A stretch of DNA of 64,000 nucleotides from a candidate division FCPU426 bacterium (GCA_963849245.1 CAWKIY010000029.1:3733-67732), one strand, 5' to 3'. Counted from the stretch's first letter, positions 9,312 to 51,812 are shown. A program made the numbers and translations. Notes: generated by a model not told the origin, from the sequence alone.

Positions 9312-10223
9312 CTACTCCGCCCACCCCTTCAAAAACTCCTCAATCAAAAAAGGCAGATCATTGTCATATCCGCCTTCCAAAAGTGAAAACATCGGCAGAT
9401 CCATCTGCTTCAGCCATTGACCAATTTTCCGGTAGTCTTTTTTCTTGAGGCCGAATTGGGTCAGGGGGTCCTTCTCATAAGTATCAAAGCCCATCGAAAC
9501 CCCGACCAGGTCCGGTTGAAAATCCCGGATTCGTTTCATGGCGTTTTCCATGGCAGGAAAATAGTCTCCCTCTTCGGTGCCGGGCGGCAGGGGGTAGTTG
9601 ATACAGTTCTCCCGGGACGACCTTCCCGTTCCCGGATAAGCCGGAAACTGGTGCAGTGAAACGTAAAGAAATTCCTTTTTGCTGAAGCAGAAGTCCTCCG
9701 TGCCGTTGCCGTGGTGGCAGTCCAGGTCGAAGACCGCGATCTTTCGGGGCTTCTCCCCGCGCGCCACATCCTGAACCGCGACGGCCATGGAGTTGAAATA
9801 GCAGAAACCCATGGCCTTGTCCGGCCGGGCGTGATGGCCAGGCGGCCTCATGAGGGAGAAAACCTTCGTGCCGTCCAGGCATTCCCGGGCCGCCTGAAGC
9901 GCCGAGCCGGCGGACAGCATGGAAGCGTCATAGATGCCGGGAGCGCCGGGGGTATCCGGGTCAAAGTAAACCTCCCGCTCCACATCCGCTACCAGATTAG
10001 GTCCGTGGACGGCGTAAATTTTTTCCAGGGGGGCCGGAGCGGGTTCGGCGAATTGGTCCGCGGGGAGGATAGATTTTAAATGTTCCAGGGAGCGGAGCAC
10101 CCGGGCCGGCTGTTCGGGATGGCCGGGGATGTCGTATTGCCCGACTTTAGGGGTGGAAAGAATCTTGAGCTTACTTGCCGCCATTACGCTTCGAGATCTT
10201 CTCGGCCAAAAGAAACTTGTCAA
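9312..10223 (-). CDS. Histone deacetylase / acetoin-utilisation (AcuC) / acetylpolyamine amidohydrolase family protein
   Basis: HDAC signatures GFCYFNSMAVAV and DLDCHHGNGTEDFCF. Likely true start at Met14 (MAASKLKI, about 10184), which overlaps the PilZ stop. Confidence 0.85.
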   Translation of the reverse strand: MTSFFWPRRSRSVMAASKLKILSTPKVGQYDIPGHPEQPARVLRSLEHLKSILPADQFAEPAPAPLEKIYAVHGPNLVADVEREVYFDPDTPGAPGIYDASMLSAGSALQAARECLDGTKVFSLMRPPGHHARPDKAMGFCYFNSMAVAVQDVARGEKPRKIAVFDLDCHHGNGTEDFCFSKKEFLYVSLHQFPAYPGTGRSSRENCINYPLPPGTEEGDYFPAMENAMKRIRDFQPDLVGVSMGFDTYEKDPLTQFGLKKKDYRKIGQWLKQMDLPMFSLLEGGYDNDLPFLIEEFLKGWAE

Positions 10224-10632
10224 GCCGGATCACGTCTTTGCGGTTGATCGCGAGAATCTTAATACCCGCCCGATGAGTGGAGCCGGTGGCGCTTCCCGAG
10301 TTTTCTGATACGGCCCGGATAACCTCGGCGATCAGGGTGACCGGCGCCGGATAGCCGGGCAAATAAAGGTGGATTTCCAGGGCTGAGTCCTCGGGAAAGG
10401 ATTCCTGCCCCACCAGGGACATGCCCCCCATGGAAATATCCCGGGTCACCGCGTTCATCACTACGGATTTTTTGGAGAGTTCGGGTAATTGATCGGCCAT
10501 GGATTCCCGGTAAGAAGCGTCGGAAAGGGTTGTCACCAGGTCCGCCTTGGGAATTAGGCAATAGGTGACTTTAATGGAGGCGTCAATGCGCTCAAACTGC
10601 CGTTTTTCCATCCATCCGTTGTGAACCGCCAT
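10171..10632 (-). CDS. PilZ domain protein (c-di-GMP receptor)
   Basis: RQFERIDASIKV (RxxxR) and DISMGGMSL (D/NxSxxG) PilZ motifs. 153 aa. Confidence 0.8.
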   Translation of the reverse strand: MAVHNGWMEKRQFERIDASIKVTYCLIPKADLVTTLSDASYRESMADQLPELSKKSVVMNAVTRDISMGGMSLVGQESFPEDSALEIHLYLPGYPAPVTLIAEVIRAVSENSGSATGSTHRAGIKILAINRKDVIRLDKFLLAEKISKRNGGK

Positions 10633-11987: not shown

Positions 11988-12716
11988 TTGAAATGGCCTG
12001 AGTCTTCACTGGTTTTAGGCACCTTTGTTGAACGCCTCCACCGGTTTGGCGCGACAGTAAAAGTCAAAGGCCGGGAAGAATACTGCCATGTGACCAACTC
12101 AGGCCGGCTTCGGGAACTCTTATGTCCCGGCGCCAAGGTGGCTCTCGTCGATCATCGGGATGATCCCCTCGCCAATTCCAAAGCCCCTCGCAAAACCCGT
12201 TACGCCGTCCGCCTAGCCTATTACCGGAAAAAGTGGGTTTGCATTGAGGCCAATATCGCCCCGAAGTTGTTGAAAGAAGCCTGGGAAAAGCACAAGGTTC
12301 CCTCTTTATCCCGTTACGATGAACTTCAGGCTGAAGTCCCATTGAATACCCACACCCGCTTTGATTTTCAAGCCCGTAACTCCAAAACCGGAGAGAAAGC
12401 TTGGATTGAGGTGAAGTGCGTGACCCTGGTGGATGAGAAAGGCGCGGGACTTTTCCCCGACGCGCCCTCGGAAAGGGCCTCCAAACATTTGCGGGAATTA
12501 AAAACTTTGTCTCATAAGGCCAAAACTAAATGTTATGTCTTTTTTATCCTGCAGAATCCTTACGGCCGGGGAGTCGCTCCCAAGGATGAGACCGACCCCA
12601 TTTTTGGAAAAACTTTGCGCTTGGTTTCTAAAACTCAGGTCCGTCTTCAAGCTTTCCGCGCCAGGATTGATCTCCAAGGCGCGGAATTGGATCAGGAAAT
12701 CCCGATTTTTTTATAA
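11988..12716 (+). CDS. sfsA: Sugar fermentation stimulation protein A (SfsA family, nuclease-like DNA-binding)
   Basis: N-terminal LVLGTFVERLHRFGATVKVKG..YCHVTNSGRLRELLCPGAKV matches the SfsA signature. 242 aa. Confidence 0.8.
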   Translation: MKWPESSLVLGTFVERLHRFGATVKVKGREEYCHVTNSGRLRELLCPGAKVALVDHRDDPLANSKAPRKTRYAVRLAYYRKKWVCIEANIAPKLLKEAWEKHKVPSLSRYDELQAEVPLNTHTRFDFQARNSKTGEKAWIEVKCVTLVDEKGAGLFPDAPSERASKHLRELKTLSHKAKTKCYVFFILQNPYGRGVAPKDETDPIFGKTLRLVSKTQVRLQAFRARIDLQGAELDQEIPIFL

Positions 12717-13658
12717 GGAGTATTTAACAACCCGGGCGTTTCCCGTGTCCGTCACATAAATGTTGCCGTTGGAATCCACAGCCACTCCGTAGGGGTTCTT
12801 CACCGAATCCGCGGCAGAGAGATTGCTATCGGATTGGGCGGCCAGCGTGTTTCCAGCTGGATTAAAAACCTTGATCGAGTTGTTTCCCGAATCAACGATG
12901 TAAACATTTCCGTTTTTATCTAACTTCACGTCATTGGGTTTGTTTAACTTAACGGTAGAGCTGTTGCCCCAGGTGATCGTGCTGTTTTGAGTTGGGTTGA
13001 GTCCCGTAATGCTGTTCCCGGCGAAATCAGCGACCAGTAAGTTCCCGTTCCCGTCACTACCCATGCCAGTGGGTCCGGAAAAGTTGCTCTGGCTTCCCAA
13101 TTGGGTGATGGGATTCCCGTCGGCGCTAAACTTCCAAACCTTGTTATTGCCGCTATCCGAAACATACACATTTCCGTTGCCGTCCACCACGACTCCCTGG
13201 GGCGAGACAAAGGGCGAACCGCCGTTGGAAGTTGGTGTAAATTGGTTCAACCAGATCCCCGTAGAGCTCATTTCAGTAACCCTCAGGTTTCCAGCGTCCA
13301 CCACATAAATATTGCCGTTGGTATCCACCGTCAGCCCCGTGGGGCGGCTGGTGGCGAATGAGGCGCTTTTCTCATCGGCATATCTCATCTGAGCCAGGCT
13401 ATTTCCGTTCGAATCGAACTTGATGACCATGTTGAGTCCGGCATCCGCGACGTAAATGTTGTTGCTGCTGTCAACCGCGATTCCAACCGGGGTTACCAGA
13501 GCCCCATTTCCGCTTTGATTCCATTGGGAAACCATTTGAAGGGTAAGCGTGGAGGAGGTGGCCATCGCCGTCGGAGCGAGCGGGGCAAGTCCCTTTCCAC
13601 AACCGGTCATTTCGACCAGAGCCAGAATCAAAGCCAGATTTAAAAGTCCCTTTTTCAT
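12711..13658 (-). CDS. NHL-repeat beta-propeller lipoprotein
   Basis: Lipobox MKKGLLNLALILALVEMTGCG. Repeated NGNIYV(V/T)D.GN.R(V) NHL-type blades. Confidence 0.75.
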   Translation of the reverse strand: MKKGLLNLALILALVEMTGCGKGLAPLAPTAMATSSTLTLQMVSQWNQSGNGALVTPVGIAVDSSNNIYVADAGLNMVIKFDSNGNSLAQMRYADEKSASFATSRPTGLTVDTNGNIYVVDAGNLRVTEMSSTGIWLNQFTPTSNGGSPFVSPQGVVVDGNGNVYVSDSGNNKVWKFSADGNPITQLGSQSNFSGPTGMGSDGNGNLLVADFAGNSITGLNPTQNSTITWGNSSTVKLNKPNDVKLDKNGNVYIVDSGNNSIKVFNPAGNTLAAQSDSNLSAADSVKNPYGVAVDSNGNIYVTDTGNARVVKYSL

Positions 13659-13898
13659 ATTTCACCTTTTCTCCCCTCGCGGGGTTCATCGTATTGTTCT
13701 ATTAGTAAAAGCAACCGGAGTGCCAAGAAAAAAAGGGCAAAAACCTTGAAAAAAGCGCTTTCCAATCATTTGTAAAGGTTGGAAAAACGGCTCTAAATGA
13801 CCCAGTTGGGTAAATAAAACCCAATGGACGAATGCGGAAATGAATAAAAACGGGACACTCGGAAGGGATTATAAAAAACGACGGTGAAAAATTGAGCC

Positions 13899-14171
13899 TT
13901 AGGGAATTTTCGAATCAGCTGTCGGCGGGGCGTCCTTATCTTCAATAAAAGCCTTTCGCATCTGCTGATCTAAAAGACAGCAATCAGGACAATCCTGAAC
14001 GTGCTTCGAAATCCAGTCCATCTGAGCCGGCAGAAGTTCTTCTTGCAAAAAAGCGTTATAAAGTTGGTGAACCTGACGGCAATCCATAAATCCCATTTCT
14101 TGACCAGACTTCCCTTGGAAGGAGAAGCAGCAAATCAGTCTTTCAAGTACCCTACTCCTGCCGCAACCCAT
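13899..14171 (-). CDS. Putative zinc-finger (zf-HC2) anti-sigma factor-like small protein, with no adjacent sigma gene
   Basis: MDCRQVHQLYNAFLQEELLPAQMDWISKHVQDCPDCC has the C...H...CxxC pattern of zf-HC2 anti-sigma N-termini. The true start is probably the internal Met (~65 aa product). Confidence 0.4.
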   Translation of the reverse strand: MGCGRSRVLERLICCFSFQGKSGQEMGFMDCRQVHQLYNAFLQEELLPAQMDWISKHVQDCPDCCLLDQQMRKAFIEDKDAPPTADSKIP

Positions 14172-14565
14172 TTTAACAACAAAAAATGACCCGAGGGGCG
14201 ACTCCCACCAACCTCGGCCTTCCGATTCGAAAAGTCACGACCGGCAAGACTTCAAAAAGCTGATTCATGATATTTTAAGAGGCTTCCAGGGACTGTTGAA
14301 TCACGGCATTTTCCGAGGAATAAAGAAAAAAATCAGAGAGATCGACTGGAAGTTACCAAACCGCCGCGAAAGCCGTTTGAATTTGCCCAGGCTTGGCTGC
14401 GGAATGCCTTTTCTTTTGGAGATGAAATTTTGATCGAAACATCGGCTTTTATTGTATGGGTGCCGCATTCTCCAAAAACAGTCCGCCCGATCCTGTTAAA
14501 ATCGGCCACTTTTTGTACAAAAATTGGCATCTTATCGTCTTCAGAAAATAGCTCAAAAACTAAAA

Positions 14566-14600
14566 AGGGGGCTCCTTTTCAGGAAGCCCCCTTTTCAAGG
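14566..14600 (-). terminator. Rho-independent (bidirectional) terminator after the pilin gene
   Basis: aagggggctcc ttttcag gaagccccctt hairpin with flanking T/A tracts, 10 nt downstream of the pilin stop (14610). Confidence 0.8.
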
Positions 14601-14609
14601 CAAACTAAA

Positions 14610-15065
14610 TCATTCAAAGCCATAGAACGAGTAAGGAATCGACTTCGAATCCTTAACCGTGCTATTGACGTAAACGCTTCCCAGGTTACTGTCATACATC
14701 CAACCAGTTCCAGCGCCCGTCGGGACCGAACTTTGGTTTGTCATAGTCACCTTATTCCCAACTGGACTCGTTGAACCAACCGTAAACGCTCCAGTTACTT
14801 TCACATTTTGGAGATTATCCAAATAACGGCTAAAAGCGTAACCAGTGAAAGATTGCAGAGTTTGCGGCCAAACCCCTTGATAGTCTCCATAATAAATCGA
14901 GGCGGCGGACTTGATCGCGCCCAGATTTCCTTTGGTCGACCCTTCTCTTGATTTTTCCAACATTTGGGCGAACCGCGGAATCGCGATAGCCGCCAAGATA
15001 CCGATAATCGCGACAACGATCATCAGCTCAATTAATGTAAATCCTTTTGCTTTCAAACGAATCAT
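14610..15065 (-). CDS. Type IV pilin-like protein (prepilin-type N-terminal cleavage/methylation domain)
   Basis: MIRLKAKG|FTLIELMIVVAIIGILAAIAIP is a class III leader with G-1, F+1 and E+5. GGAGG RBS 8 nt upstream of the ATG. Confidence 0.9.
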   Translation of the reverse strand: MIRLKAKGFTLIELMIVVAIIGILAAIAIPRFAQMLEKSREGSTKGNLGAIKSAASIYYGDYQGVWPQTLQSFTGYAFSRYLDNLQNVKVTGAFTVGSTSPVGNKVTMTNQSSVPTGAGTGWMYDSNLGSVYVNSTVKDSKSIPYSFYGFE

Positions 15066-15148
15066 TTAGTCCTCCGTTTTTTCTAAACCGAACGCTGCCT
15101 GTGACCCCAAAGGCAGTCGATGTTGAAAATAAACTATACCCGTCTACG

Positions 15149-15340
15149 TCAATGTCCTTTTTCAGGCAGCTTTTTTATTTCGATCTTTTGGGACTTCACA
15201 TCAATTCTCCGGGTGTTGTCGGTAAAATCCGAAGCCCATGTGTTTCCCTCGGAAACAGACTTTGGATGTTCACCCGCGACCCAGAAAATAGAACCAAAAA
15301 CCAAAAGCCCAAGAAAGATTAATAAAAAATAAGACTTCAT
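15149..15340 (-). CDS. Small (63 aa) secreted or membrane-anchored protein between the sigma-54 promoter and the pilin gene
   Basis: MKSYFLLIFLGLLVFGSIFWVAGE... hydrophobic N-terminus. Located downstream of the candidate sigma-54 promoter. Coding status unverified. Confidence 0.35.
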   Translation of the reverse strand: MKSYFLLIFLGLLVFGSIFWVAGEHPKSVSEGNTWASDFTDNTRRIDVKSQKIEIKKLPEKGH

Positions 15341-15381
15341 TGATTTTTCCGGATACAGATTTAATTTACTGTAATAAGTAA

Positions 15382-15400
15382 AAGCACGAACTGTGCCAGT
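15382..15400 (-). promoter_or_regulatory. Candidate sigma-54 (-24/-12) promoter reading toward the small ORF and pilin gene
   Basis: Minus-strand sequence TGGCACagttcGTGCt. GG and GC elements are at the canonical spacing of TGGCAC-N5-TTGC. It lies ~45 nt upstream of the 15340 start codon and immediately downstream of a sigma-54-dependent response-regulator gene. Confidence 0.5.
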
Positions 15401-15539
15401 AAAAGGTAAATGATTTCCTTAAATTCCAGGCAATTGGACAGTCCAATCTGCATCAAAAAGAATGCAGTGGAACCTTTCTTATGCATTGATCCCAGAAAGG
15501 TACTGCTGTGAAAGTATCATCGGCAGAATGAAAAAAGAT

Positions 15540-16913
15540 TTATTTTTTTCGAAAGAAATCGGCTTTCAAACGATATTTTTTCAGAAGGAGTTGAAAATTT
15601 CGACGGGCAAGTCCCGCTTGACGGGCCGCGTCCGAAACATTCCCTTGAGATTTTTTTAAAAGTTGAACCAGATAATTCTTTTCGAACGCTTGAACTTGAA
15701 GGCGTTTGGCCTCCCGAAAAGGTCCTTCGGGCTGATACTTTTCAGAACTTTGGGGCAGCGCCATATCTTGCGGCCCTATTTCAAACCCGCTCGACATTAA
15801 AGCCGCACGCTCGAGAATGTTTTTAAGTTCCCTGACATTTCCAGGCCAGCTTTGAGAAATCAGCCATTTGAGAGCCTGAGGCGAAAGCTTTTTAATGTCC
15901 TCGGTATTTTTAGAGAATCGTTTTAGAAAAAAGTCAGCCAAAAGGGGAATGTCAGCCATTCTTTCCCGCAAAGGGGGAATCGGCAGAAGTAAAACAGAAA
16001 GCCGGTAAAATAAATCTTTACGAAATCTTTTTTGCTCCACCATTTCCTCTAAATTTTGGTTCGTAGCGGCGATCACCCGCACATCCACCTTTCGGGCGCG
16101 GGCGTCGCCCAAAAGACGAACCTCGCCGGATTCCAACACTCTTAAAAGTTTGGCCTGTGATTCCAAGGGAACTTCCGCGATTTCATCTAAAAATAAAGTA
16201 CTTCCATCCGCCGCTTGAAAAAGTCCGTCGCGGGTTTCTTGGGCTCCGGTATAAGCGCCTTTCTTAACGCCAAAAAGCTCCGCCTCGAATAAATTGGCGG
16301 GAAGCGCCCCCGCGTTCACTTGAACTAAAGGACCTTTCGCTCGCGGTGAAGCCTCATGGATAGCCCGGGCCGCCAATTCCTTTCCAACCCCTGATTCTCC
16401 CACAATAAGAACATGCGCGTCGCTCGGGGCGAACTTATGGATGAGTTGGGATACTTTTTGAATCGCGGAAGATCCGCCTACCATCGGACCATTCAGGGAA
16501 GCGGAAACCTCTTGGCGTAATCTCTCATTTTCTTCAAGTAAGCGTCCTTTCGCTAGAGCCTTAAAAACCACGACTTCCAGATCCTCCGCCGTAAAGGGCT
16601 TTGGAAGATAGTCTTCCGCTCCTTTCTTAATGACATCCACGACATTTTTAGTGCTTCCATAACCGGAAACCACGACAACCGGCAGATGGGGGCTTACTTT
16701 TTTCAGTTTTTCTAAAAAATGCTCGCCGGACAATCCGGGCAGGCGTAAATCCGTAATGACCAGGCTGAAAGCTTCCCGATTCAATACTTCCAGAGCTTTT
16801 TCAGCGTCTTCCACACAAAAGGCGTCATAACCTTTTTGATCCAACATGGCGTTTAAAAGATTGCGGACCCCCTTTTCATCATCGACAACGAGTATCCTCT
16901 GTTTTTTAGTCAT
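15540..16913 (-). CDS. Sigma-54-dependent response regulator (NtrC/PilR family: REC, AAA+ sigma-54 activator, Fis-type HTH)
   Basis: REC domain (ILVVDDE...[11 protein letters not shown]). Walker [15 protein letters not shown]-like loop (KKGAYTGAQ) and ESELFGH-like ([10 protein letters not shown]). C-terminal HTH ...[23 protein letters not shown]. Confidence 0.92.
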
Positions 16914-16932
16914 TTCGATCCCTTTGAGACAA

Positions 16933-18693
16933 TTAGGCGCTGGGCCATTCTAAAATAATTCTCGTTCCGTGAGGCCTGTTTGCCCTGACTTGGATGCGGC
17001 CCCCATGGGCTTGAAGAATTGAGCGGGCAATCACCAATCCTAAACCTGTCCCGCTGGGTTTCGTGGTAAAAAAGGGCCGAAATAGCTGGGCCGCGTCTTT
17101 TTTCAAAATCCCTTTTCCCGTATCGGTTACCCGGACCCAAATCGATCCCTTATTTTTCTTTAATTCAATAAGAACAATTCCTCCCTGAGGCATCGCTTCC
17201 ACCGCGTTCCGCATGACATTCAACAGCACCTGCTTCACCCGGTCTTTATCCGCGGAGACCATAAAGGGCTTTGACACACATTTTAACTGGTATTTCAGCT
17301 CTCCTTTGGGAATTTGAGCCCAAGTTTCCCTCGCCAAAAAAGTCAAATCAAAACGTTGAAACCGTAATTGAATCGGCTTGGCAAAAGTTAATAGATCTGA
17401 AACCAGTCTCCGGCAGCGGTTGGCTTCCTGATAAATTTCATCCAACCAATTTTTGAATTTGACGCCTTTGGCGTTCCGGGCCATTTGGGCCGACCCTAAA
17501 ATCACCGTTAATGGATTATTTAACTCATGGGCCAATCCGGCTGAAAATTGTCCAATAGTCGCCAAACGCTCTGACTCCGCCAGCTTTCGTTCGGCTTGAA
17601 GCGTTCGGCGGTGGGCTCTTTCCCTGGAATGGGTTTGGGCTTTAATATTTTGGGCCATCCGCCCAATCGCCTGTCCTAAAATTTCCACCTCGTCGGTCGG
17701 TTTCAAGGATTCCCATTTTTTAGAATCCAATTGACCCGATTCATACCGGCCCACTTGAGTCGCTAAATTTAAAATAGGACGAACGACTCTCTCGGAAAGA
17801 GTTAAGGCTAAAAGTAAACTCGCAATGAGGGTCAAGGCTAAGAAAAGGGACATAAACTTCAACATTCGCGCCGCTGGTTCATAACATTCCTCAGCCGTTT
17901 GGCGCACAATCACACCCCAGGACGCGGATTCCACCGTGGCGAAAGCCGCTAAGACCTCTTCGCCCGCCCGGTTTTTAAATTGGATGACGCCTTCTTTTTG
18001 GGTTTTAAGTTTTTGAACCGCGGGACTTCCATTGACCGTTCCCAGCAGCCGGGTTTTATCCGGATGCACAATGGCAAATCCCTGTTGATTGACCATATAA
18101 GCGTAGCCGGTTTTTCCGAAATGCGCGGTTTCTAAGTTTTTAATGCTGTGATTGGGCAGGTAAGTAACTCCCACCAAGACTCCGACCAAATGCCCATCCC
18201 GGAAAACAGGAGCGCTGACCGCGACCCCCACCTCATCGGATTTGGTTTTATAAACGTCGACCAAAACCGAGCTTTTCAATTCCTCCGCGCGCTTAATGTT
18301 TTCGATAAAAAAAGAGGACGGTGGTAGATTTTGAGGATTGACACTGGGCTGGCCCTGCGCGAAAAGGTGGCCCTGAGGCGTGAATAGGAGTAAACCATCA
18401 ATGAGTTCGGTCGCGTTCGTGACAAGGGTCATTTCCCGGATGACGGAAGAGCGGACCATAAGGGTTATTTCAGGCCGTTTTGAAAGAACCTCAATCGCTT
18501 GAAAAGTATTGGAAAGACTTTGATCCACCTGCCAGGCCAGGGTTTTAGCCAAAGTCAACTGGGCTTGTTGTGCTTGCAGCCGGAGGGATTGATACGATTT
18601 CCAAACCAAATAGCCGCCCAAAAAACCGGTAGTACCCGTGGAAAGAAGAACCGTCAAAAGGGTGATTTTGGTCTTTAAACTGATAAATCTCAA
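16933..18693 (-). CDS. Sensor histidine kinase with periplasmic Cache-type domain, HAMP, HisKA and HATPase
   Basis: N-terminal TM, then a periplasmic double-Cache-like region (..GYAYMVNQQGFAIVHPD..), second TM, HAMP, H-box LAHELNNPLTVILG, then G1/G2 boxes (DTGKGI...GTGLGLVIARSIL). Confidence 0.9.
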   Translation of the reverse strand: MRFISLKTKITLLTVLLSTGTTGFLGGYLVWKSYQSLRLQAQQAQLTLAKTLAWQVDQSLSNTFQAIEVLSKRPEITLMVRSSVIREMTLVTNATELIDGLLLFTPQGHLFAQGQPSVNPQNLPPSSFFIENIKRAEELKSSVLVDVYKTKSDEVGVAVSAPVFRDGHLVGVLVGVTYLPNHSIKNLETAHFGKTGYAYMVNQQGFAIVHPDKTRLLGTVNGSPAVQKLKTQKEGVIQFKNRAGEEVLAAFATVESASWGVIVRQTAEECYEPAARMLKFMSLFLALTLIASLLLALTLSERVVRPILNLATQVGRYESGQLDSKKWESLKPTDEVEILGQAIGRMAQNIKAQTHSRERAHRRTLQAERKLAESERLATIGQFSAGLAHELNNPLTVILGSAQMARNAKGVKFKNWLDEIYQEANRCRRLVSDLLTFAKPIQLRFQRFDLTFLARETWAQIPKGELKYQLKCVSKPFMVSADKDRVKQVLLNVMRNAVEAMPQGGIVLIELKKNKGSIWVRVTDTGKGILKKDAAQLFRPFFTTKPSGTGLGLVIARSILQAHGGRIQVRANRPHGTRIILEWPSA

Positions 18694-18714
18694 AATTCAC
18701 TTCCCTTAACGCTG

Positions 18715-19323
18715 TTATTTTTTAACCAAGCTCTTCGCCCCAAAAGCCCCAACCGCGGCCCCGACAAGAATCAATCCAAGCCATACCAAAAAACGCCCGC
18801 TGCCCGCGCCAAATCGAATCCCAAATTGTTGGTCGACAAACCTTCCCATTAAAAAACCGATAAACCCGCCAAAAGCGGAAAAAAGAAGAACCCAAACAAG
18901 TTGACCCAGTGAATAGTATTTTCGGCTGATCCCCCAGAGCGGTTGAATTAAGGGGAAATAGACGAAGATAAATAAAAACCCCAGGGCAATCTCGTGCTGG
19001 CGCATAGCGGTTGAAAAAGGATTTCCCGTGAAATAAAGAAGATAAACCGTCCAAAGGTAAGCGCAGACGCCTAAAGCCCAGCTCAAAACAAAACTCACGG
19101 GCCAAAGAATCGTTCCCAAACAACCTTCCGGCAATTTCCAACGGTAAACATAAAGCAGCGGATAAGCCACGACGAAAAATAAGGCGTTATGGAAAAAATG
19201 AAGACCTAACAATTCGCTGGCGGTTGGATGAATTTGAATATGCAAAAGACCGGCGACTCCCAACGCTTCCCAGAATAACAATCTGAAAAAAGACCGGTCT
19301 TCAGCGGCGGCTTTCTTGCCCAC
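18715..19323 (-). CDS. Polytopic membrane protein, paralog 1 of a tandem pair (unknown family)
   Basis: 202 aa, about 6 TM. Shares with the upstream paralog the blocks FxR(F/L)(I/L)(L/F)WE(I/A)LGV(V/A)G(F/L)LHI, NA(V/L)xFV(L/V)xYP(V/L)(V/L)Y and Q(H/P)LWG(V/I)S. Confidence 0.5.
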   Translation of the reverse strand: MGKKAAAEDRSFFRLLFWEALGVAGLLHIQIHPTASELLGLHFFHNALFFVVAYPLLYVYRWKLPEGCLGTILWPVSFVLSWALGVCAYLWTVYLLYFTGNPFSTAMRQHEIALGFLFIFVYFPLIQPLWGISRKYYSLGQLVWVLLFSAFGGFIGFLMGRFVDQQFGIRFGAGSGRFLVWLGLILVGAAVGAFGAKSLVKK

Positions 19324-19326
19324 AGG

Positions 19327-19953
19327 TCAGCCTTTCCGGGTACGGGCGTTAAACCACACCACAACCCCTACCCCGATAAACACGAAAATAACCCAAACTA
19401 AAACCCTCACTTCATTCCCGCCGAAAAACATTCCCCATTTCGTGTCTAAAGTATGGCCAAGTCCAAAACCAACGACGACTCCGCTGACCGCGTCGGAAAG
19501 AATGGCCGCGGTTGACCAGAAAGTGTGCTCGTGCCCGCTGACACCCCATAAGTGCTGAAAAAAGAAGAAATAATTCATCATAAAAAGGGGAAAGACCGCC
19601 CAATAATAATCGGCGAAAACTTGATAGCAATAAACGTGATCAAGGGAATAACCCGTCGCGTAAAGCACATCCGTAATCCAAATATAAGTGCTGATAAGCA
19701 GCAGCACCTGTAAAAAAGCGTGCAGGGGTGAAATCAAAAACTTTAAAAAAACAGGCATCTTCAGCTGTTGATAAAAATAAACAACCGGATAAGTCAGGAC
19801 AAAAATCACGGCGTTGGCTAAAAAAATGAGCGGAACCGGGTCATTTGCCGGACCGTAATAAAGAATATGCAGAAATCCAACCACTCCTAAAATTTCCCAA
19901 AGAATAAACCGGGCGAAAGAAGGCGGCTTGGAAATAACGGGGTCTTTACCCAT
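19327..19953 (-). CDS. Polytopic membrane protein, paralog 2 of the tandem pair. Carries GVSG and AVSGVVVGF Ser motifs plus His residues that paralog 1 lacks.
   Basis: 208 aa. ...QHLWGVSGHEHTFWSTAAILSDAVSGVVVGFGLGHTLD. The 3-nt gap to paralog 1 suggests a tandem duplication. Confidence 0.5.
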   Translation of the reverse strand: MGKDPVISKPPSFARFILWEILGVVGFLHILYYGPANDPVPLIFLANAVIFVLTYPVVYFYQQLKMPVFLKFLISPLHAFLQVLLLISTYIWITDVLYATGYSLDHVYCYQVFADYYWAVFPLFMMNYFFFFQHLWGVSGHEHTFWSTAAILSDAVSGVVVGFGLGHTLDTKWGMFFGGNEVRVLVWVIFVFIGVGVVVWFNARTRKG

Positions 19954-19954
19954 T

Positions 19955-20302
19955 TCAATCCTCTTTCTTAACTTTTATTTTTTCTGTCATATGGCCGCAT
20001 TTCGAGCAGGCATAAATGACAATCCAACTGGCTTTAGCCTCGTCGTATTTCATCTCGTGGGCCGTTACCCGGGCCATACACCAGGAACAATGGGCCTTTT
20101 CCCAGCGGGGCCTTGTCGTGGCCCAAAGCAGTCCTGCCCCGGTCGCCAAAAGCAACAAGCCCATGGGCTCTAATATCCGCAGGCTCAGACCATAGTTCAA
20201 CCACAAAAGACTGGTTCCCATTAATAAAGCGAGGAACCATAGAAGAAAAAATTTTTCCCAAGGCACCCGCCGAAGGAACGATTGAAGGAGAAAAGGTTTC
20301 AT
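19955..20302 (-). CDS. Membrane protein with C-terminal zinc-ribbon (CxxC...CxxC)
   Basis: About three N-terminal TM helices, then CSWCMARVTAHEMKYDEAKASWIVIYACSKCGH. 1-nt gap to the next gene. Confidence 0.5.
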   Translation of the reverse strand: MKPFLLQSFLRRVPWEKFFLLWFLALLMGTSLLWLNYGLSLRILEPMGLLLLATGAGLLWATTRPRWEKAHCSWCMARVTAHEMKYDEAKASWIVIYACSKCGHMTEKIKVKKED

Positions 20303-22213: not shown

Positions 22214-23488
22214 CTAGGACAACCCAGGAGCGGACTTGAGGGTATCGAGATGGAGAACTAGGGATAAAATATGATTTTTTCCATGAACATCCTTGAAGGA
22301 ACGCGCGAAAGTCGCGCAAAAATGGCCCGTCGATGGGGAAACATAGGGCTCCCCGGTAAAAGTCAGGTTTGAATCCCCGCTTTCTTTCAAGCGCGAATAA
22401 TAATCCCTAAACTGATGATCCGATCCCATCGGGGGCGGTCTTAAAATCAAACGCTTTTTCGAGAACTCCTCCGAAGGGCCGAAGATCGCTCCCGAAACCT
22501 GCCTTCCCTTCTCATCCAAGATAAAAAGATATTCCGCGGAAGGAAAATGAGAAATCATTTCCAACGACTTTTGCTCAAAGTTCTCCGACGGAACCTGAGA
22601 AAGCGTTTTGGCTATTTCAGCCGCCATGAGTTGATATTTCTCAAGATCAAGATTCTTAATTTTGTTTTTTTCAAGAATCCTTTCCCTAAACCGAACCGAA
22701 AGCGGTTGAAGTTTCGACTCGACTTCCTGCGGCTTAAACTGTTCAACCGGCAGAGGCTTGGAGAAATAAAAACCCTGCATCAGGTCGACTCCCATTTCCA
22801 GGATCGTCACAGCCTCCTCTTCGCTCTCCACTCCTTGGGCGATGATCAAGGCCCCCATCTCACGGGCGACCCCGACGAGTGATTTGAAAACTTCTTGTTG
22901 ATGAAAATCCTTTGAGATATCCCGAACCAAAGCCTTGTCGATTTTGAGGATGTCGGGTTTTAAAAGAGCGATTCGATTGAGGTTCGAGCGCCCCGCTCCC
23001 ATATCATCCAAGGCGATTAAAAAACCATTGTTTTTATGAACTTCAATAAACTTTTGCAGCAGTTTGATATCTTTAAAATTAGATTCGATCACTTCCAACA
23101 CAATACTGGAGGGTTTTAATCCCAAGGAAGTCACTTGTTCCATCAGCTTGCCCGAGGACACCATTTCCCAATTAATCGCCGCCGCGTCAAAGTTGAGAGA
23201 TAAAAAGTAATCGGGGTGGGATTTATCGACCGTGAGGTAACAATCCAAAATCTTCTTCCGGCAAAGACGATCCAATTCGCGGGTCAATCCAACCAGGTCG
23301 GCTTTATCAAACAAAAGCAAAGGATTGATGGTCTGCAGATCCCGGGGATCAAGCGCCCGGGATAAACCCTCATAACCCACAATGGCCTGCCTTGAAACCG
23401 AGACAATCGGTTGAAAGTAGGCGACGACAAAATCGCCTTCCATGATTTTTTGCAGATCAAACGGATTGGGAGACTGCGGCTCGGGCAT
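22214..23488 (-). CDS. EAL-domain c-di-GMP phosphodiesterase-like protein with C-terminal Cache/PAS-like sensor fold
   Basis: N-terminal EAL domain (FQPIVSVSRQAIVGYEGLSRAL; DDMGAGRSNLNRIALLKPDILKIDKALV). C-terminal ..RDYYSRLKESGDSNLTFTGEPYVSPSTGHFCATFARSF..HILSLVLHLD resembles the Cache/PAS-like consensus. Confidence 0.75.
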   Translation of the reverse strand: MPEPQSPNPFDLQKIMEGDFVVAYFQPIVSVSRQAIVGYEGLSRALDPRDLQTINPLLLFDKADLVGLTRELDRLCRKKILDCYLTVDKSHPDYFLSLNFDAAAINWEMVSSGKLMEQVTSLGLKPSSIVLEVIESNFKDIKLLQKFIEVHKNNGFLIALDDMGAGRSNLNRIALLKPDILKIDKALVRDISKDFHQQEVFKSLVGVAREMGALIIAQGVESEEEAVTILEMGVDLMQGFYFSKPLPVEQFKPQEVESKLQPLSVRFRERILEKNKIKNLDLEKYQLMAAEIAKTLSQVPSENFEQKSLEMISHFPSAEYLFILDEKGRQVSGAIFGPSEEFSKKRLILRPPPMGSDHQFRDYYSRLKESGDSNLTFTGEPYVSPSTGHFCATFARSFKDVHGKNHILSLVLHLDTLKSAPGLS

Positions 23489-26316: not shown

Positions 26317-29300
26317 TTAGCGGAGGACTAAGACCTTAAGGATTTTACTGGATTTCACCGGGCCTGTGACCTGGACTTTTAAATAGTAAATACCGTTGGC
26401 TACTGTATTTCCCCACGCGTCATTTAGATTCCAATCGAGAACCGCGTTATTTCCGAAATTAGTGTCCGTATGATCCTGAACCTTTCGGAAGGCGGTCGTA
26501 TAAACAGTCCATTCAACCGTGGAACCGGCGGGAATCTGTAACTGGATAGACACCGGCCCCGCATGGACCGGATTAGGATAGGGCAGCCCAATTACGACAG
26601 TCGAGCCTGGATTAGACGAAGCCGTCGCGGTCGAAGTCGGTGTGGAGGTATAGGTGAGGATGGGCGTTAAGGTCAAGGTAAGCGTTGAGGTAGGGCTGCT
26701 CGAAGGAGTGGAAGTCGCTGTAGCCGTAAGCGTATTGGTCAAAGTAGCGGTGAACGTATTCGTCGGGGTATTCGTTGAAGAATAAGTCGGGGTGGCCGTA
26801 TTGGTCGCGATAGGGGTCGGCGTCATCGTGGAAGTACTGGAGGCCGTCGGCGTTAACGTATCCGAAGCCGTGGCGGTCAGGGTTTGAGTCGACGTGGCCG
26901 TAGCACTGGGAGTATTGGTTGCCGTATTGGCCGCCGTAGGGGTATAGGTCCCCGGCAGGAAGGTATTTGTCGGTGTAATACTCAAAGTCATCGTCGCCGT
27001 CCCCGTTAAATTCAAAGTTGGGGTGAAGGTCACCGTTGGCGTAGCCGTGGGCGATCCCGCTGTTGGGGAAATCGTAATCGTCGGGGTGGCCGTCGGCGCG
27101 GCTGGCGTGGATGTATCCGTAGCCGTGTACGCCACCGTCAGGGTAGCGCTCGGAGTCATTGTCGCTGTCCCCGTTAAATCAAAGGTTGGAGTCAAGGTAA
27201 CGGTGGACGTGGAAGTCGGTGATCCCGCCGTTGGGGAGACCGTAATCGTCGGGGTGGCCGTAGGCGCGGCTGGCGTAGACGTATTCGTAGCCGTGTACAC
27301 CGCCGTCAGGGTAGCGCTCGGGGTTATTGTCGCCGTCCCGGTTAAATTCACAGTCAAAGTAAAGGTTGGAGTAGCCGTAGGCGCAACAAACGTAGATGTA
27401 TTCGTAGCCGTGGAAGTCACCGTTGGCGTGGCCGTAGGCGATCCTGCCGTTGGGGAAATCGTAATGGTCGGTGTTGCCGTCGGTAGAGACGGAGTGAATG
27501 TATCCGTAACGGTGTAAGTCGCCGTCGATGTGTTTACCAATGTCAGGGTAGCGCTTGGGGTCATCGTCGCTGTCCCGGTTAAATTCACAGTGGGAGTAGG
27601 GGTTACCGTTGGCGTGGCGGTAGGCGATCCTACTGTTGGAGAGACTGTAATCGTCGGGGTGGCCGTAGGCGCGGCTGGCGTGGATGTATTCGTAGCCGTG
27701 TACACCACTGTCAGGGTAGCGCTTGGGGTCATCGTCGCCGTTCCGGTTAAATTCACAGTCGGAGTGAAGCTGAAGGTTGATGTAACCGTAGGCGATCCCG
27801 CCGTTGGGGAAATTGTAATCGTCGGGGTGGCCGTAGGCACAACCGTGGTAAATGTACCCGTAACGGTGGATGTCACCGTCGACGTAGATACCGCCGTTAA
27901 GGTGAAAGTCGGAGTAGCCGTTGGGCTTCCCGGGGTCGGAGTGACCGTACTAGTTAAAGTCGGCGTGGCGGTCGGAGGCGCGTTCTCAAAATAAATATCA
28001 TCATAATCAATCGTCTCGTTCGATCCGCCTGTAGCCGGGCCGGCCACTAAAAAGCCCACATCCAAAACGGCCGCCCAATTGAACGTGCCGATACTCGAAT
28101 CCCAATTCGTCGAGTTGATCGGCAATACCACGTTCACCCAGGTATTCAGCATTGTGACTGAATATAAAACCGGCGAACCCGTTCCCCCGGTGTAGTAGCT
28201 CGTATCCGCCACTGAGTAACTACTGTTACTTGTCGCGCTTTGCATAAATACTTTGAACGTGACTGGAGAACTCGTATTGATCCAGAAGCTTAAGGACGCT
28301 GGGGCTGAAGGCGCGATACTTACCGCGTCCCCATAGTTATTGATTTGGGCGTAACCGGACTCGAAAGCGTATGCCGCTGTACCATTAGACCCGGTCCATG
28401 TTACGGCCATCTGGATTCCCCAGCTGCCTGAATGGACTTGGGTATTTTCCAAATACCCTGTTACCGCAGAATTAACTTCCCCAAAAGTTTGATCCATACT
28501 AGAAGAGACGACTGCCCCATTCGTATCGCCGTAGGGATCTCCTCCCTCGGGATAACTCGGATATTCCCAGTTCTCAAACACCATGCCCGAAATCGAAGGA
28601 GTTGGTGTAGCCGCAAAAGTGGAAGTACTCGTAGGAGTCAGGCTGATCGTGGCTGTCGACGTCATCGTTGATGTGGAACTGGATGTCATCGTAAACGTGG
28701 ATGTACCTGTTGGAACCACGGTATTAGTCAGTGAAGGCGTAAGCGTCGCCGTAACCACCAACGTCGGGGTATAGGTTCCCGGCAGGAAGGTATTTGTCGG
28801 CGTGGCGCTGGGGGTTATTGTCGCCGTCCCGGTTAAATTCAAAGTCGAAGTAAAGGTAAAGGTTGGAGTAGCCGTAGGCGCGGCAAACGTAGATGTATTC
28901 GTAGCCGTGGAAGTCACTGTTGACGTGGCTGTAGGCGAGCCTACTGTTGGGGAAACCGTAATCGTCGGTGTTGCCGTCGGTAGAGACGGTGTAAATGTAT
29001 CGGTAACTGTGTACGTCGCCGTCGAAGTTTCCACTGCTGTCAGGGTAGCGCTCGGGGTTATTGTCGCCGTCCCGGTTAAATTCGCAGTCAAAGTAAAGGT
29101 TGAAGTGGCCGTAGGCGATCCTGCCGTTGGGGAAATCGTAATGGTCGGTGTTGCCGTCGGTAGAGACGGAGTGAATGTATCCGTAACGGTGTAAGTCGCC
29201 GTCGATGTGTTTACCAATGTCAGGGTAGCGCTTGGGGTCATCGTCGCTGTCCCGGTTAAATTCACAGTGGGAGTAGGGGTTACCGTTGGCGTGGCGGTAG

Positions 29301-31116
29301 GCGATCCTACTGTTGGAGAGACTGTAATCGTCGGTGTTGCCGTAGGCGCGGGCGGCGTGGATGTATTCGTAGCCGTGTACACCGCCGTCGGGGTATAGGT
29401 TCCCGGAAGGAAGGTGTTCGTTGAGGTAAAAGTAACCGTGAAAGTACCCGTATTAGTCGGCGTAAAACTGCTGGTTAGGGTGGGCGTAAAGGTCGGCGTC
29501 GTAGTACTGGTTAGGGTTGTGGTCGAAGTAGCCGTAGTGGTTCCAGTCGCCGTGTTGGTAGAAGTAAGCGTCTTGGTCGGGGTGGAGGTCACCGTGGGGG
29601 CGACGTAACAAAAATTTAAATTATCGAAAAGAACCGTGGAAGAATAAGGGAATGTAGTAACCGACGCGGGACTCATCATCTCAAAATCTAAACTACGAAC
29701 GCCGGTGCCGTCATAGGTAATGGAGCTTAAATCCGCTATAACATTTGTCCACTGTCCGGCTGGCAGGCTTTGGGTAATGGTCACTACATGACTGGTCGTA
29801 TCGTAAATAACCACGTAGGATAAATTGATCGTTTGGGAAGGATTGATGTCAAAACTCAATTGAGTCGGATTGGAACCCATAGACTGGACATTAACGGCGG
29901 AGCCTCCACCGGCAACCCCGTCATAAACCTCCAATTGGGCCAAACCGCTGGGACCCGTGAAAGTAATCGCGTCCTGAAGACTGCCAACCGAGCCTCCATA
30001 GGTTTGAAGGGTATTCGTGTTCAACGTAACCGTTTGTGTCACAGAAGAGCTGACGACGAAATAACCGGTCGAGGGATTTGTCGTCCAAGGCGCCTCGTCA
30101 AAATCATCAAAATCAAAACAATTAGTCAAAACCGGAGTGCTGCTAGCCGTAGGAGTCGCTGTTGTTGTAGGTGTGGGAGTGCTTGTTGGAAGAGGCGTGA
30201 GGGTGTAAGTTCCAGGGGCGAAAGTATTAGTCGGGGTAAAGGTCGCCGTATTCGTCGGCGTTAACGTGGGAGTAGGCGCCGCAAAGCAAAAATTAAAGTT
30301 GTCTAAAAGAACCGTCGAAGAATAGGGATAAGTGCTCACCGATCCTGGGCTGGTGATGCCGAAATAAACCTGCACAACATCTGTGCCGTTGTAAGTGATC
30401 GAACTCAAGTCTACAACCACATTAGTCCATACACCGGCCGGAAGGGTTTGGTTCACGGGAACCGTATGTAAGGATGTGTCATAAACACCCACATTCGATA
30501 AGGTAATCACTTGGGAAGGATTGATATAAAAACTAAGTTTGGTTGGATTCGAACCCAGGTACTGCACATTAACGGCACCGCCAAAAGAAGCCCCGTTACC
30601 CACTCCCAACAATGCCAGATTACCAGCACCCGTGAAAGTAATTGCGTCCTGAAGGCTTCCTAAGGAACCACCATAGGTTTGAAGGCTATTGGTGTCCAAT
30701 GTAACGGCTTGAGTCGTGGAAGTATTAATTGGCTGGCACAAATAAGATGGGAAGCCCCCGCCAATCCATGGACTCTCGTCAAAATCATCAAAATTAAAAC
30801 AATTGGCCAAAGCGACCGTATTGGTGAAGGTAGGCGTATAGCTTCCGTTCGAGGTATTCGTGGGAGAAGGGGTGAAAGTCGCAGTTGGAGTACCCGTATT
30901 GAAAGGCGTAAAAGTAATCGTGGAAGTATAAGTCACCGTACCCGTAGCCGTCGGGGTAGCGGTAAGTCCCGGGGTATTGGTGGACGTACTGGTTGAAGTG
31001 AGGGTAGGCGTATTGGTGGCAAAGACAGGCAAGGCCCAACCCATGAAAAAAACAACCACGAAGCAGGCAAAAATGCCGGCATTCCAAAACAAAAATTTAT
31101 TTCCAAACGCTCTCAT
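26317..31116 (-). CDS. Giant (1599 aa) Thr/Pro-rich repetitive cell-surface protein. It has two CBM-like ~175-aa domains (xNCFxFDDFDExPW...) and a type-IX-secretion-like C-terminal sorting domain.
   Basis: Signal peptide. Two copies of the ..NCF(N/D)FDDFDE(S/A)PW...LQTYGGS(L/V)[11 protein letters not shown].. domain. Dozens of ~60-aa [23 protein letters not shown] repeat units. C-terminal [15 protein letters not shown]...TAFRKVQD...GIYYLKVQV...KILKVLVLR. Confidence 0.85.
27428..27656. repeat. 229-bp perfect direct repeat, copy 1, inside the adhesin gene. It is part of a longer array of ~180-bp coding repeats.
   Basis: Identical base for base to 29105-29333 by manual line-by-line comparison. 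Confidence 0.9.
29105..29333. repeat. 229-bp perfect direct repeat, copy 2, inside the adhesin gene
   Basis: Identical to 27428-27656. Flanking repeat units are related but diverged. Confidence 0.9.
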
Positions 31117-31348: not shown

Positions 31349-32704
31349 CTAGGGTGTAGCCTCCGGTACCACGCCTTTATACTTCTCAAGCCAATCCGCC
31401 AGGGACTTGGCTTCAGGTTTTAATTTGAGAACCTGCTCAAAACATTGAATGGCATAAGCCTTTTGATTGACACGGTAATACAAGTTCGCCAGCTGCCACC
31501 AAGCCTTAGCGTCTTGGGGATTCTCTTTGATTGCGGCTCGATAGGCTTCCGAGGCCTGAGTCCATTGGCCGTCCTGTTCCAATTTTTCACCGTTAGCCAC
31601 TTGGGGCGACAGCATGTCAAAGTGGACAGTCAGGGATTGTCCCCCAGCCCCGGCGGAAGACCCCGTAACCGGTTCGGGCTTCACCCCGGCTGTTACAGAC
31701 TGCGCCGTTGAAGCTTTCACCGACTGAGTCGCAGTGGATGTCGGCTGGGAAGGTCCGCCGAAACGATAAGTCAGGCTGATCCGGTTTGTGGCGCCTAAGT
31801 CGCCGAAGGGCACAAAGGCATAATCCAAACACAGCCCTGAGAAATCCACTCCGCCTCCGGCGCTAAAACCTTGAAGACCGTTGAGTCCGGTATCTTGTAA
31901 GACTCCCTGATAGCCTGCCCGGATAAAGTAGGTGGATTTGTAGGAAGCTTCCGCACCCAGATTGAACTCGCTCCCGTATTGGGGTTCATAGGAATAAGCG
32001 ACGGCCGTTAATACCGAGAAAGGGCCCTTGCTCGAAAAAAGTTTCGAAATCCCTAGTCTCAAGATAGAAGAGGCGGAAGCGCTGTTGGTCGTCGTACCGA
32101 AGTTCTCAAAAGAAGCCCCAAAGCGCCATCCCCCGGGGACAGCAAAGAGAAATCCCGCGTCCGCGTCAAAGAGATTGTAGGTATAAGAAGCCAATTGCTG
32201 GGAAGTGCCCCGCAAATCGAGCCCGATAGAAAATCCTTTGAAAAGCTCTAGGCCCATGCCCGCGCCCAAACCAAACTGATTGGCGCTACTCGAGGCCGCC
32301 AAGGTCCCATCCGCGTTACGACCCTGAAAGGTTCCGTAGTTCACCATCTGGGCGGTAAATCCCAACCCCATTCCCTTCATCAGGGGCAGACCCATGGTGA
32401 AAATATCCTGGGATATCCCATCCAAGCCAATAAGGTGATCCAACCCCAAATCATTTCCGCCCAAAGTCGCCAATCCGGCCGGGTTATAAAAAAGGGCTGA
32501 GGAATCATCCGCCACCGCGACGAAAGCGTTCCCCATCGCCACATCCCGGGCCGAGGCCCCGGCGCTTTCGAAGGGATCTTGAATAGAAGAGGTGGAAAGT
32601 GTCTGCGCCCCTATTGAACTAAAAGAGGCTGTCCCCAAGAACACGAAGAGGCCTAGCATAACTTTCATCGCTAACCCTTGCGGGCACTTCATGACGGGGC
32701 GCAT
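31349..32704 (-). CDS. FadL/PorV-like outer-membrane beta-barrel protein with C-terminal TPR extension
   Basis: Signal peptide MKVMLGLFVFLGTASFSSIGAQ. N-terminal block ..ARDVAMGNAFVAVADDSSALFYNPAGLA.. is typical of the FadL/PorV-like family. C-terminal ..AKAWWQLANLYYRVNQKAYAIQCFEQVLKLKPEA.. is a TPR repeat. The start ATG overlaps the stop of the upstream cargo gene (TAATG). Confidence 0.55.
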   Translation of the reverse strand: MRPVMKCPQGLAMKVMLGLFVFLGTASFSSIGAQTLSTSSIQDPFESAGASARDVAMGNAFVAVADDSSALFYNPAGLATLGGNDLGLDHLIGLDGISQDIFTMGLPLMKGMGLGFTAQMVNYGTFQGRNADGTLAASSSANQFGLGAGMGLELFKGFSIGLDLRGTSQQLASYTYNLFDADAGFLFAVPGGWRFGASFENFGTTTNSASASSILRLGISKLFSSKGPFSVLTAVAYSYEPQYGSEFNLGAEASYKSTYFIRAGYQGVLQDTGLNGLQGFSAGGGVDFSGLCLDYAFVPFGDLGATNRISLTYRFGGPSQPTSTATQSVKASTAQSVTAGVKPEPVTGSSAGAGGQSLTVHFDMLSPQVANGEKLEQDGQWTQASEAYRAAIKENPQDAKAWWQLANLYYRVNQKAYAIQCFEQVLKLKPEAKSLADWLEKYKGVVPEATP

Positions 32705-42295: not shown

Positions 42296-42709
42296 TTACA
42301 CGGAATAAAGCATGAGATAAACAATCACACCCGTAACTGAGACATAAAGCCAGATAGGAAAAGTGATCCGGGCCAGTTTTCGGTGTTTCGCGAAATTGCC
42401 CTTTAAAGCCTGCCGAAGGGTCATGATGGCCAAAACCGGTACCAAAACCGCCAGCGGGGTATGCGTCCAAAGAATCGTGAAATAAAGAATACGGATGAGA
42501 CCCTGGCCTTGAAAATAAACAATGCCCGCGTTGGCGTGGTAATAAAGATAGCAGCCTAGAAAAATAATCGAAATGGAAAAGGCCGTGATCATGCAAAACC
42601 GGTGGGCCTTTTGATTTTTATTTTTAATAAACCAAAAACCCAGTAATAAAAAAAACGCGCTGGCCCCGTTTAAACAGGCGTTCAAGGTGGGGAAAAAAGA
42701 AAGACTCAT
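42296..42709 (-). CDS. DUF420 family membrane protein (commonly linked to heme-copper oxidase biogenesis loci)
   Basis: 137 aa, 4 TM. Overlaps the SCO gene by 4 nt. Confidence 0.6.
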   Translation of the reverse strand: MSLSFFPTLNACLNGASAFFLLLGFWFIKNKNQKAHRFCMITAFSISIIFLGCYLYYHANAGIVYFQGQGLIRILYFTILWTHTPLAVLVPVLAIMTLRQALKGNFAKHRKLARITFPIWLYVSVTGVIVYLMLYSV

Positions 42710-43329: not shown

Positions 43330-43331
43330 AC

Positions 43332-45004: not shown

Positions 45005-45029
45005 TTCACGCCTTCACTTTCAGTTCAAC

Positions 45030-46813: not shown

Positions 46814-46900
46814 TGGCTTTTAGTCCCTCAAGATGTTTAAAAAAAGATGGCCCCGGGGGTTTTCCCCGGAGCCATCAAAATCTCGAATAAAATCTTTAAC

Positions 46901-50656: not shown

Positions 50657-50671
50657 GGCTTTATCCTTACG

Positions 50672-51772: not shown

Positions 51773-51812
51773 GATCCCTCAAAACTTAACGTATTTTCCG
51801 CTCAATAACCGA

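Follow-up and report, generated by a model that had tools for sequence, protein, structure and literature searches.

We analysed a 64,000-nt stretch of DNA (the window; GCA_963849245.1 CAWKIY010000029.1:3733-67732) from an uncultured soil bacterium of candidate division FCPU426, in which seven minus-strand genes at 14610-20302 run from a zinc-ribbon membrane protein, through a sensor histidine kinase and its response regulator, to a type IV pilin-like gene. These genes are likely to make up two separable units, a two-component sigma-54 switch with a pilin output (15095-18693 plus the pilin gene) and an abutting orphan trio of a zinc-ribbon protein and two six-helix paralogs (18715-20302). A first-pass annotation had taken all seven for one sensory module that follows pilS-pilR-pilA logic with a Cache sensor; the open reading frames (ORFs) were found in the positions, order and spacing that it gave them.

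The control logic recurs elsewhere. The order kinase, regulator, promoter, pilin is present in six FCPU426 lineages for which the DNA was read (the window, L010, the near-identical L028/L034, L031, L037 and L038), and a seventh contig from JGI, known from its gene table alone, has the same kinase-regulator-pilin order, with a small ORF before the pilin gene. The comparison took in about 45 related loci, each belonging to candidate division FCPU426 or to unclassified metagenome-assembled genomes (MAGs), in keeping with the earlier suggestion of a lineage-specific circuit. A scan of one genome per species gave 21 loci, whose labels are mostly candidate division FCPU426, with a few Firestonebacteria, "proteobacterium" or plain "bacterium" MAGs. 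Window proteins were compared by tblastn with all fetched loci, and gene tables were read besides.

The promoter lies between the regulator gene and the small ORF, where the first-pass annotation had placed a -24/-12 element. The sequence TGGCACAGTTCGTGC at 15384-15398 (minus strand) has the form TGGCAC-N5-GTGC, and both pattern search and conservation mark it as the sigma-54 -24/-12 element (TGGCACagttcGTGC). The pattern TGGCAC-N6-TGC has two sites in the 64 kb (0.32 expected), both intergenic and directly 5′ of a same-strand gene. Transcription from the element at the pilin locus would start near 15372. In L010, L028/L034, L031, L037 and L038 the promoter takes the form TGGCA[CT]-N5-xTGC[TC]. 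It is also legible inside the over-long gene calls P0205, P0206, P0208 and P0209; the peptide PWHGSCF in several such calls is the translation of TGGCACGGTTCCTGCTTT, these calls running straight through the promoter, so its conservation extends to further lineages.

Upstream of the promoter is a candidate enhancer (upstream activating sequence) at 15449-15485 (minus strand), which consists of a palindrome TGCAT-N8-ATGCA (15449-15466) and a third TGCAT half-site 14 nt upstream of it (15481-15485). The palindrome is unique in the window, whether exact or with one mismatch, and its centre is about 86 nt upstream of the predicted transcription start. All 7 regulator-adjacent pilin leaders (from the 6 lineages) carry both a -24/-12 element and a palindrome [TC]GC[AG]T-N8-A[TC]GC[AG], the latter 67-86 nt upstream of the former, in regulator-to-pilin spacers otherwise too diverged to align. 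The half-site, N14 and palindrome stand at equal distance from -24 in four lineages; the other two have the palindrome and then a half-site. Neither palindrome nor -24/-12 element was found at any of the 14 pilin copies that lack a preceding regulator, and their sigma-54 scores are lower; the 7/7 versus 0/14 contrast carries no formal probability, the loci being related by descent and the events not independent. The case for action of the regulator on this promoter rests chiefly on this strict co-occurrence of regulator, palindrome and promoter, and the palindrome is the regulator's predicted binding site. A pilin gene in L008 (L008b) has upstream of it, at about 18700-18900 between two pilin copies, a remnant of a regulator C-terminus (NFQLLLKKY...KKK*) and no promoter, so the promoter was lost along with the regulator. 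By its sequence the remnant is a trace of the loss of a kinase-regulator cassette.

It might be objected that the -24/-12 match is fortuitous or vestigial, and that pilin transcripts arise either by read-through out of the regulator gene or at a leader promoter near the hairpin that precedes the pilin gene. No terminator separates regulator and promoter, and regulator-less pilin leaders do have sigma-70-like boxes beside a GGGT motif (L008a, L016). Such an accident would nevertheless have had to be preserved in six lineages amid unalignable flanks, always accompanied by the palindrome and lost together with the regulator, and in L037 the element stands 120 nt from the pilin ATG with nothing between them; we regard it as very improbable. 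As a side observation, a 41-aa ORF at 15361-15486 (minus strand), gene-called in L001 (a Logan assembly), overlaps candidate enhancer and promoter alike. Relatives have no counterpart of it and the call is probably spurious.

The kinase gene (16933-18693, minus strand; 586 aa) encodes, by Pfam and transmembrane prediction, a transmembrane helix, a periplasmic dCache domain, a second transmembrane helix, HAMP, HisKA and HATPase_c. The dCache_1 match scores 58.8 bits against a cut-off of 45, and HAMP, HisKA and HATPase_c are matched too. Translation begins at a TTG giving MRFISLKTK, a start kept in orthologs, which are 49-60% identical. The regulator gene is always next wherever sequence runs on past the kinase. 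Here it occupies 15540-16913 (minus strand) and encodes a 457-aa NtrC-family response regulator, a sigma-54 enhancer-binding protein with Pfam matches to Response_reg (E=2e-27), Sigma54_activat (E=4e-67), AAA_lid_14 and HTH_8 (E=1e-5). Phospho-acceptor D55, Walker A GESGVGKE, a GAYTGA loop and a Fis-type helix-turn-helix (HTH) can be read from the translation, so that the receiver (REC) domain, sigma-54-interaction AAA+ domain and Fis-type HTH of a PilR-type circuit are all present. Regulator orthologs are 62-72% identical. The top-scoring named NCBIfam families for the two proteins are AtoS, AtoC, ZraS and ZraR, at scores far under the cut-offs (AtoS 202 versus 646 bits, AtoC 403 versus 714 bits), and the regulator reaches no NCBIfam equivalog cut-off.

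From domains, motifs, conservation and the co-occurrence of regulator, enhancer-like site and promoter, we infer a ligand-driven switch with phosphotransfer, DNA binding and a defined transcription start. The membrane kinase would sense an extracytoplasmic ligand through its periplasmic dCache domain and phosphorylate the NtrC-type regulator at D55. The regulator would then bind the enhancer, TGCAT-N8-ATGCA, some 86 nt before the start, and its AAA+ domain, through the GAYTGA loop, would open the sigma-54 holoenzyme complex at TGGCAC-N5-GTGC. The resulting transcript is expected to encode first a 63-aa membrane protein with a single helix and then, beyond the leader hairpin, a highly conserved 151-aa type-IV-pilin-like subunit, and to end at a strong terminator.

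PilS-PilR systems acting on a sigma-54 pilA promoter occur in Pseudomonas aeruginosa, Myxococcus xanthus and Geobacter sulfurreducens. The locus shares with them an NtrC-family regulator with REC, sigma-54 AAA+ and Fis-type HTH domains, a -24/-12 promoter 5′ of a type-IVa-like pilin gene, and an upstream repeat placed like an enhancer; as in Myxococcus and Geobacter, the genes for kinase, regulator and pilin adjoin one another. PilS-PilR control of sigma-54-dependent pilA has been reviewed (PMC8657755). Judged from these features, the locus works like PilS-PilR-sigma-54-pilA, but its kinase is not a PilS because the input is a Cache domain: PilS has six transmembrane helices and a PAS domain and monitors membrane pilin, whereas the FCPU426 kinase has two transmembrane helices, periplasmic dCache and HAMP, and neither a PAS domain nor the PilS-type set of about six N-terminal helices was found in it. 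The regulator differs from PilR in falling under every equivalog cut-off and in carrying GAYTGA. The locus also departs from PilS-PilR-pilA in the gene for a small membrane protein between promoter and pilin, and in a pilin that is one of many near-identical dispersed copies, mostly outside this control. AtoS-AtoC and ZraS-ZraR have the same transmitter and regulator architectures (a dCache-HAMP kinase with an NtrC-type regulator), but here the target is a pilin and not a metabolic or metal-stress operon.

Sigma-54 control of a pilin would thus appear to have been rebuilt around a periplasmic ligand sensor, which replaces the input by which PilS senses pilin, and the Cache input would imply an external chemical cue and not the pilin inventory. 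A literature search brought up no published case of a sigma-54 pilin promoter under a Cache-type kinase. It also showed that candidate division FCPU426 has no cultured members and almost no described biology, published information being essentially limited to abundance surveys. The locus gives the phylum a concrete, testable circuit with a defined promoter, a candidate enhancer sequence, a ligand-screenable sensor and an output.

Besides the shared descent of the loci compared, several findings weigh against such a switch. No RpoN-box was found in the 576 kb searched (window plus loci). The sigma-54 contact loop is GAYTGA, also in the L037 ortholog, where the canonical loop is GAFTGA; the Phe-to-Tyr variant has been reported active in other enhancer-binding proteins. 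The absence of a terminator after the regulator gene means that upstream read-through may also express the pilin, and many pilin copies evidently do without this switch for their expression. PilB/C/D/M-Q/T assembly genes were seen neither in the window nor beside the pilin copies examined, so the pilin product is a putative filament subunit.

Indirect support for sigma-54 use in the phylum comes from other well-placed consensus sites and from a second type of enhancer-binding protein (XylR_N-V4R) present in L041. About 650 kb of FCPU426 DNA holds four strict-consensus -24/-12 sites (in L004, L016 and L030, and in the window at 13711-13725), all just 5′ of a same-strand gene. The one in the window, TGGCACTCCGGTTGC (minus strand), is a second perfect site, 53 nt 5′ of an NHL/SBBP beta-propeller lipoprotein gene (ORF 12711-13658, minus strand), and is kept in L016 (site at 20014, gene at 20106). 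We considered whether the same enhancer serves this promoter and rejected it, the TGCAT-N8-ATGCA palindrome not being there; another activator probably serves it. A consensus sigma-54 site precedes the gene for an EAL paralog in L030. Cyclic-di-GMP signalling genes stand either side of the pilin locus in the window, a PilZ-domain protein gene at 10171-10632 and an EAL-domain protein gene at 22214-23488 (both minus strand).

The trio that precedes the kinase consists of the zinc-ribbon membrane protein (19955-20302; 115 aa) and two polytopic membrane proteins, TM1 (19327-19953; 208 aa) and TM2 (18715-19323; 202 aa), all on the minus strand. Gaps between successive ORFs from the zinc-ribbon gene to the regulator gene are 1, 3, 21 and 19 nt. 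The zinc-ribbon protein has two predicted transmembrane helices (residues 18-36 and 43-61) and a C-terminal CxWC...CxxCG, whose four cysteines are invariant in all homologs but a degraded copy in L029. TM2 is a paralog of TM1 (32% identity, E=3e-23) and always follows it in related loci. The three proteins had been described as of unrecognised family, which agrees with our searches, none having a match in Pfam or NCBIfam, or in PDB by sequence or fold. TM1 belongs to an orphan family: a search of 5.8 billion proteins gave 67 homologs, every one of them from an uncultured MAG and free of Pfam domains, and one of 1.84 billion proteins gave only 16 representatives. Its AlphaFold2 (AF2) model (pLDDT 85, pTM 0.80) has seven helical segments, six of membrane-spanning length; TM1 has no PDB sequence match, and the best PDB fold has a TM-score of 0.30 or less.

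With such short gaps (1-21 nt) and no terminator at this site, the trio is probably co-transcribed with kinase and regulator, and it lies upstream on the same strand wherever the kinase-regulator pair can be traced far enough. All seven genes could accordingly be one system, as first proposed, in which the trio supplies accessory sensor or transport parts that feed the Cache kinase and thus control the pilin. We find this quite unlikely in view of the other genomes. Almost all related loci have the trio, including those in which no kinase, regulator or pilin comes after it, and many trio loci (L002, L007, L012, L019, L021, L023 and L024) have none of the three within 10 kb. Where both units exist they are usually separated, the intervening DNA being 0.6-0.9 kb with unrelated genes, HMBD and 150-aa protein genes in L040, or some 7 kb of genes for CzcCBA, HMBD and 150-aa proteins, so that variable cassettes put the trio 0.6-7 kb from the kinase-regulator cassette or pilin. 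Since the trio often stands apart from the kinase elsewhere, the 21-nt junction of TM2 and kinase here is a local arrangement and not a conserved coupling.

The order resembles a backbone synteny, in which DinB on one flank and SfsA, DUF6588, PilZ and deacetylase on the other are conserved too. The backbone runs DinB ... zinc-ribbon, TM1, TM2 ... a variable region ... pilin (1-2 copies), zf-HC2, (NHL protein), SfsA, DUF6588, PilZ, deacetylase, inositol phosphatase, LacI. Depending on the genome the variable region is empty or holds CzcCBA-type RND efflux genes with HMBD, a small HMBD protein, a 148-153-aa single-helix protein, a monooxygenase-like protein, a YHS-like lipoprotein or the kinase-regulator-small ORF cassette. 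Judged by these neighbourhoods, zinc-ribbon protein, TM1 and TM2 are a separate orphan module restricted to FCPU426.

Efflux genes of the CzcCBA RND type with HMBD domains occupy the kinase-regulator slot in L004/L031, L008, L016, L018, L020 and L036, with a small secreted HMBD protein alongside. The 148-153-aa single-helix protein, which has no Pfam match, comes after the efflux genes in L031, L018, L020 and L036 and is found without them in L002, L023, L026 and L040. Metal-handling neighbours are the sole, weak hint at a function for the trio.

The first gene of the proposed sigma-54 transcript is the small ORF at 15149-15340 (minus strand; 63 aa). The first-pass annotation had asked whether it is conserved, and it is: an ORF of 56-63 aa follows the promoter in 5 of the 6 lineages (the window, L010, L028/L034, L031 and L038), usually preceded by a ribosome-binding site, and a profile search returned eight clusters among 5.8 billion proteins. 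Its products are basic at the N-terminus, have one hydrophobic helix and share a SQKIEIKxL or SQKIAIKDLK motif, conserved at the C-terminus, and those of the window and L028 are 44% identical; the 63-aa product has no Pfam or NCBIfam match. The gene is evidently real. It had been called secreted, which its sequence does not establish: the product has a single N-terminal hydrophobic helix and no obvious AXA cleavage site. We also considered a degenerate HMBD protein, given the similar position of such proteins elsewhere, and rejected it for lack of cysteines and of any tblastn match.

In the tblastn comparison of fetched loci the small ORF was never found with pilin copies that lack the kinase-regulator pair, and it is absent from L037. 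It tracks the pair and not the pilin, which links its product to the two-component system and makes a co-secreted pilin partner or leader peptide, as had been suggested, less likely. Small membrane proteins that are induced by a two-component system and feed back on its kinase include MgrB (PhoQ), MzrA (EnvZ) and SafA (PhoQ). The FCPU426 protein resembles these as a single-helix protein of about 60 aa in a regulator-dependent transcript, tied phylogenetically to the kinase-regulator pair and not to the output gene; it differs in being dispensable in one lineage (L037) and in having no sequence similarity to any of them. By this analogy we speculate that it may modulate the kinase by feedback, as MgrB does PhoQ.

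The pilin-like gene (14610-15065, minus strand; 151 aa) follows. Its N-terminus, MIRLKAKG|FTLIELMIVV, is a class III signal peptide with an 8-residue leader, G-1, F+1 and E5, and the protein matches Pfam N_methyl and TIGR02532. The G|FTLIE prepilin site, the GGAGG site (15071-15075, 5 nt upstream of the start), the leader hairpin and the terminator are all as previously described; the terminator, 3′ of the gene at 14560-14598 (minus strand), is an intrinsic one with a 16-bp stem containing 7 GC pairs and then a T-run. Its resemblance to known pilins is confined to the N-terminal helix. NCBIfam matches cover that helix only and fall under all equivalog cut-offs, PDB matches (type IVa pilins, geopilin) are limited to residues 6-67, and the AF2 model, from a shallow alignment, has a pLDDT of 44 and leaves the globular head unmodelled.

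An exact look-up of the window pilin itself gave no record. More than 120 pilin clusters are at least 75% identical, nearly all 151 aa long, and about half of the alignment columns are invariant, with a variable patch at about residues 95-120. The copies found in the loci are tandem pairs or triplets and dispersed singletons (L008 18158-19599; L028 15726-16723; L031 9434-10456; L032 10001-11941; L041 10001-10456). Between genomes the copies stay at 75-85% identity, against 50-65% for the other proteins, a uniformity that suggests unusually strong constraint or gene conversion. Some copies lie beside a TonB-dependent receptor gene, between rhodanese genes or after CzcCBA/HMBD metal-efflux genes.

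We think it possible, if somewhat doubtful, that the 151-aa product is a pseudopilin or other pilin-like surface protein, such as a secretion-type or metal/redox fibre subunit, and not a major subunit of a type IV pilus. Some sources name close homologs GspG, and the dispersal of copies into unrelated operons would fit. So would the lack of cysteine, hence of a disulfide-bonded D-region, the share of aromatics (about 12.6% of mature residues, counted from the sequence) and the geopilins as best PDB sequence matches for the helix. GspG itself is not indicated, the GspG model TIGR01710 giving 43.6 bits against a cut-off of 88.85 with only residues 7-70 aligned. Secretion-system genes are not adjacent, and in its short leader, its E5 and its size the protein is like a type IVa pilin. 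Near-identical tandem paralogs of major pilins are moreover known from other bacteria.

Directly 3′ of the pilin gene or genes in L016, L020, L028, L031 and L037 is a gene for a zf-HC2 (anti-sigma-like) protein, which has the same backbone position in the pilin-less loci L018 and L023. In the window it is called at 13899-14171 (minus strand); the protein of about 60 aa has no transmembrane helix, and its true start is likely MDCRQVH near 14087.

The hairpin in the pilin leader (15095-15116, minus strand) has the stem CTGCCT/AGGCAG and the loop TTGGGGTCAC. With no T-run behind it, the hairpin does not qualify as an intrinsic terminator. A motif (T)TGGGTC(A) recurs 44-66 nt before the ATG in many FCPU426 pilin leaders, whether they have a sigma-54 promoter or not. 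Mostly it belongs to a hairpin, in or beside the loop, and the stems vary in sequence from lineage to lineage (leaders of L010, L011, L028, L031, L032 and L038). The 7-mer TTGGGTC, a motif chosen post hoc, occurs 6 times in 19 leaders against 0.18 expected (about 30-fold). The motif could act as an RNA element of the leader or be bound by a protein. RNAalifold gave six such hairpins a weak consensus (5 pairs, 3 with compensatory changes, -2.3 kcal/mol), too weak for us to claim a structured RNA family, and an Rfam search of 14400-15600 returned only chance matches under gathering scores.

Three leads toward new families come out of the analysis: the orphan trio, the family of the small ORF and the hairpin in the pilin leaders. 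A bolder reading joins three suppositions: that the small ORF is a new two-component-induced peptide feeding back on the Cache kinase, that the UUGGGUCA-loop hairpin is a new phylum-wide post-transcriptional control of pilin, and that the cysteine-free, aromatic-rich pilin, repeatedly placed beside CzcCBA/HMBD genes and the orphan trio, has a metal or redox role. That all three hold together is unlikely; if they did, FCPU426 pilin biology would be an unrecognised system and not a copy of PilSR.

Elsewhere in the window, all on the minus strand, are a 1599-aa ORF with no Pfam match (26317-31116) and the gene for a 958-aa DUF7948/SBBP beta-propeller protein (32704-35580). The latter has a weak match to Por_Secre_tail, a type IX secretion sorting domain (26.3 bits against a cut-off of 27), and is adjoined by genes for an extracytoplasmic function (ECF) sigma factor and a FlgD_ig protein. 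A respiratory cluster at 42296-53464 encodes a 934-aa multi-haem cytochrome c, a cytochrome b-like protein, a Rieske protein, haem A/O synthesis proteins (CtaA, UbiA-type), SCO1 and DUF420, a gene content pointing to an aerobic or microaerobic way of life in this FCPU426 bacterium.

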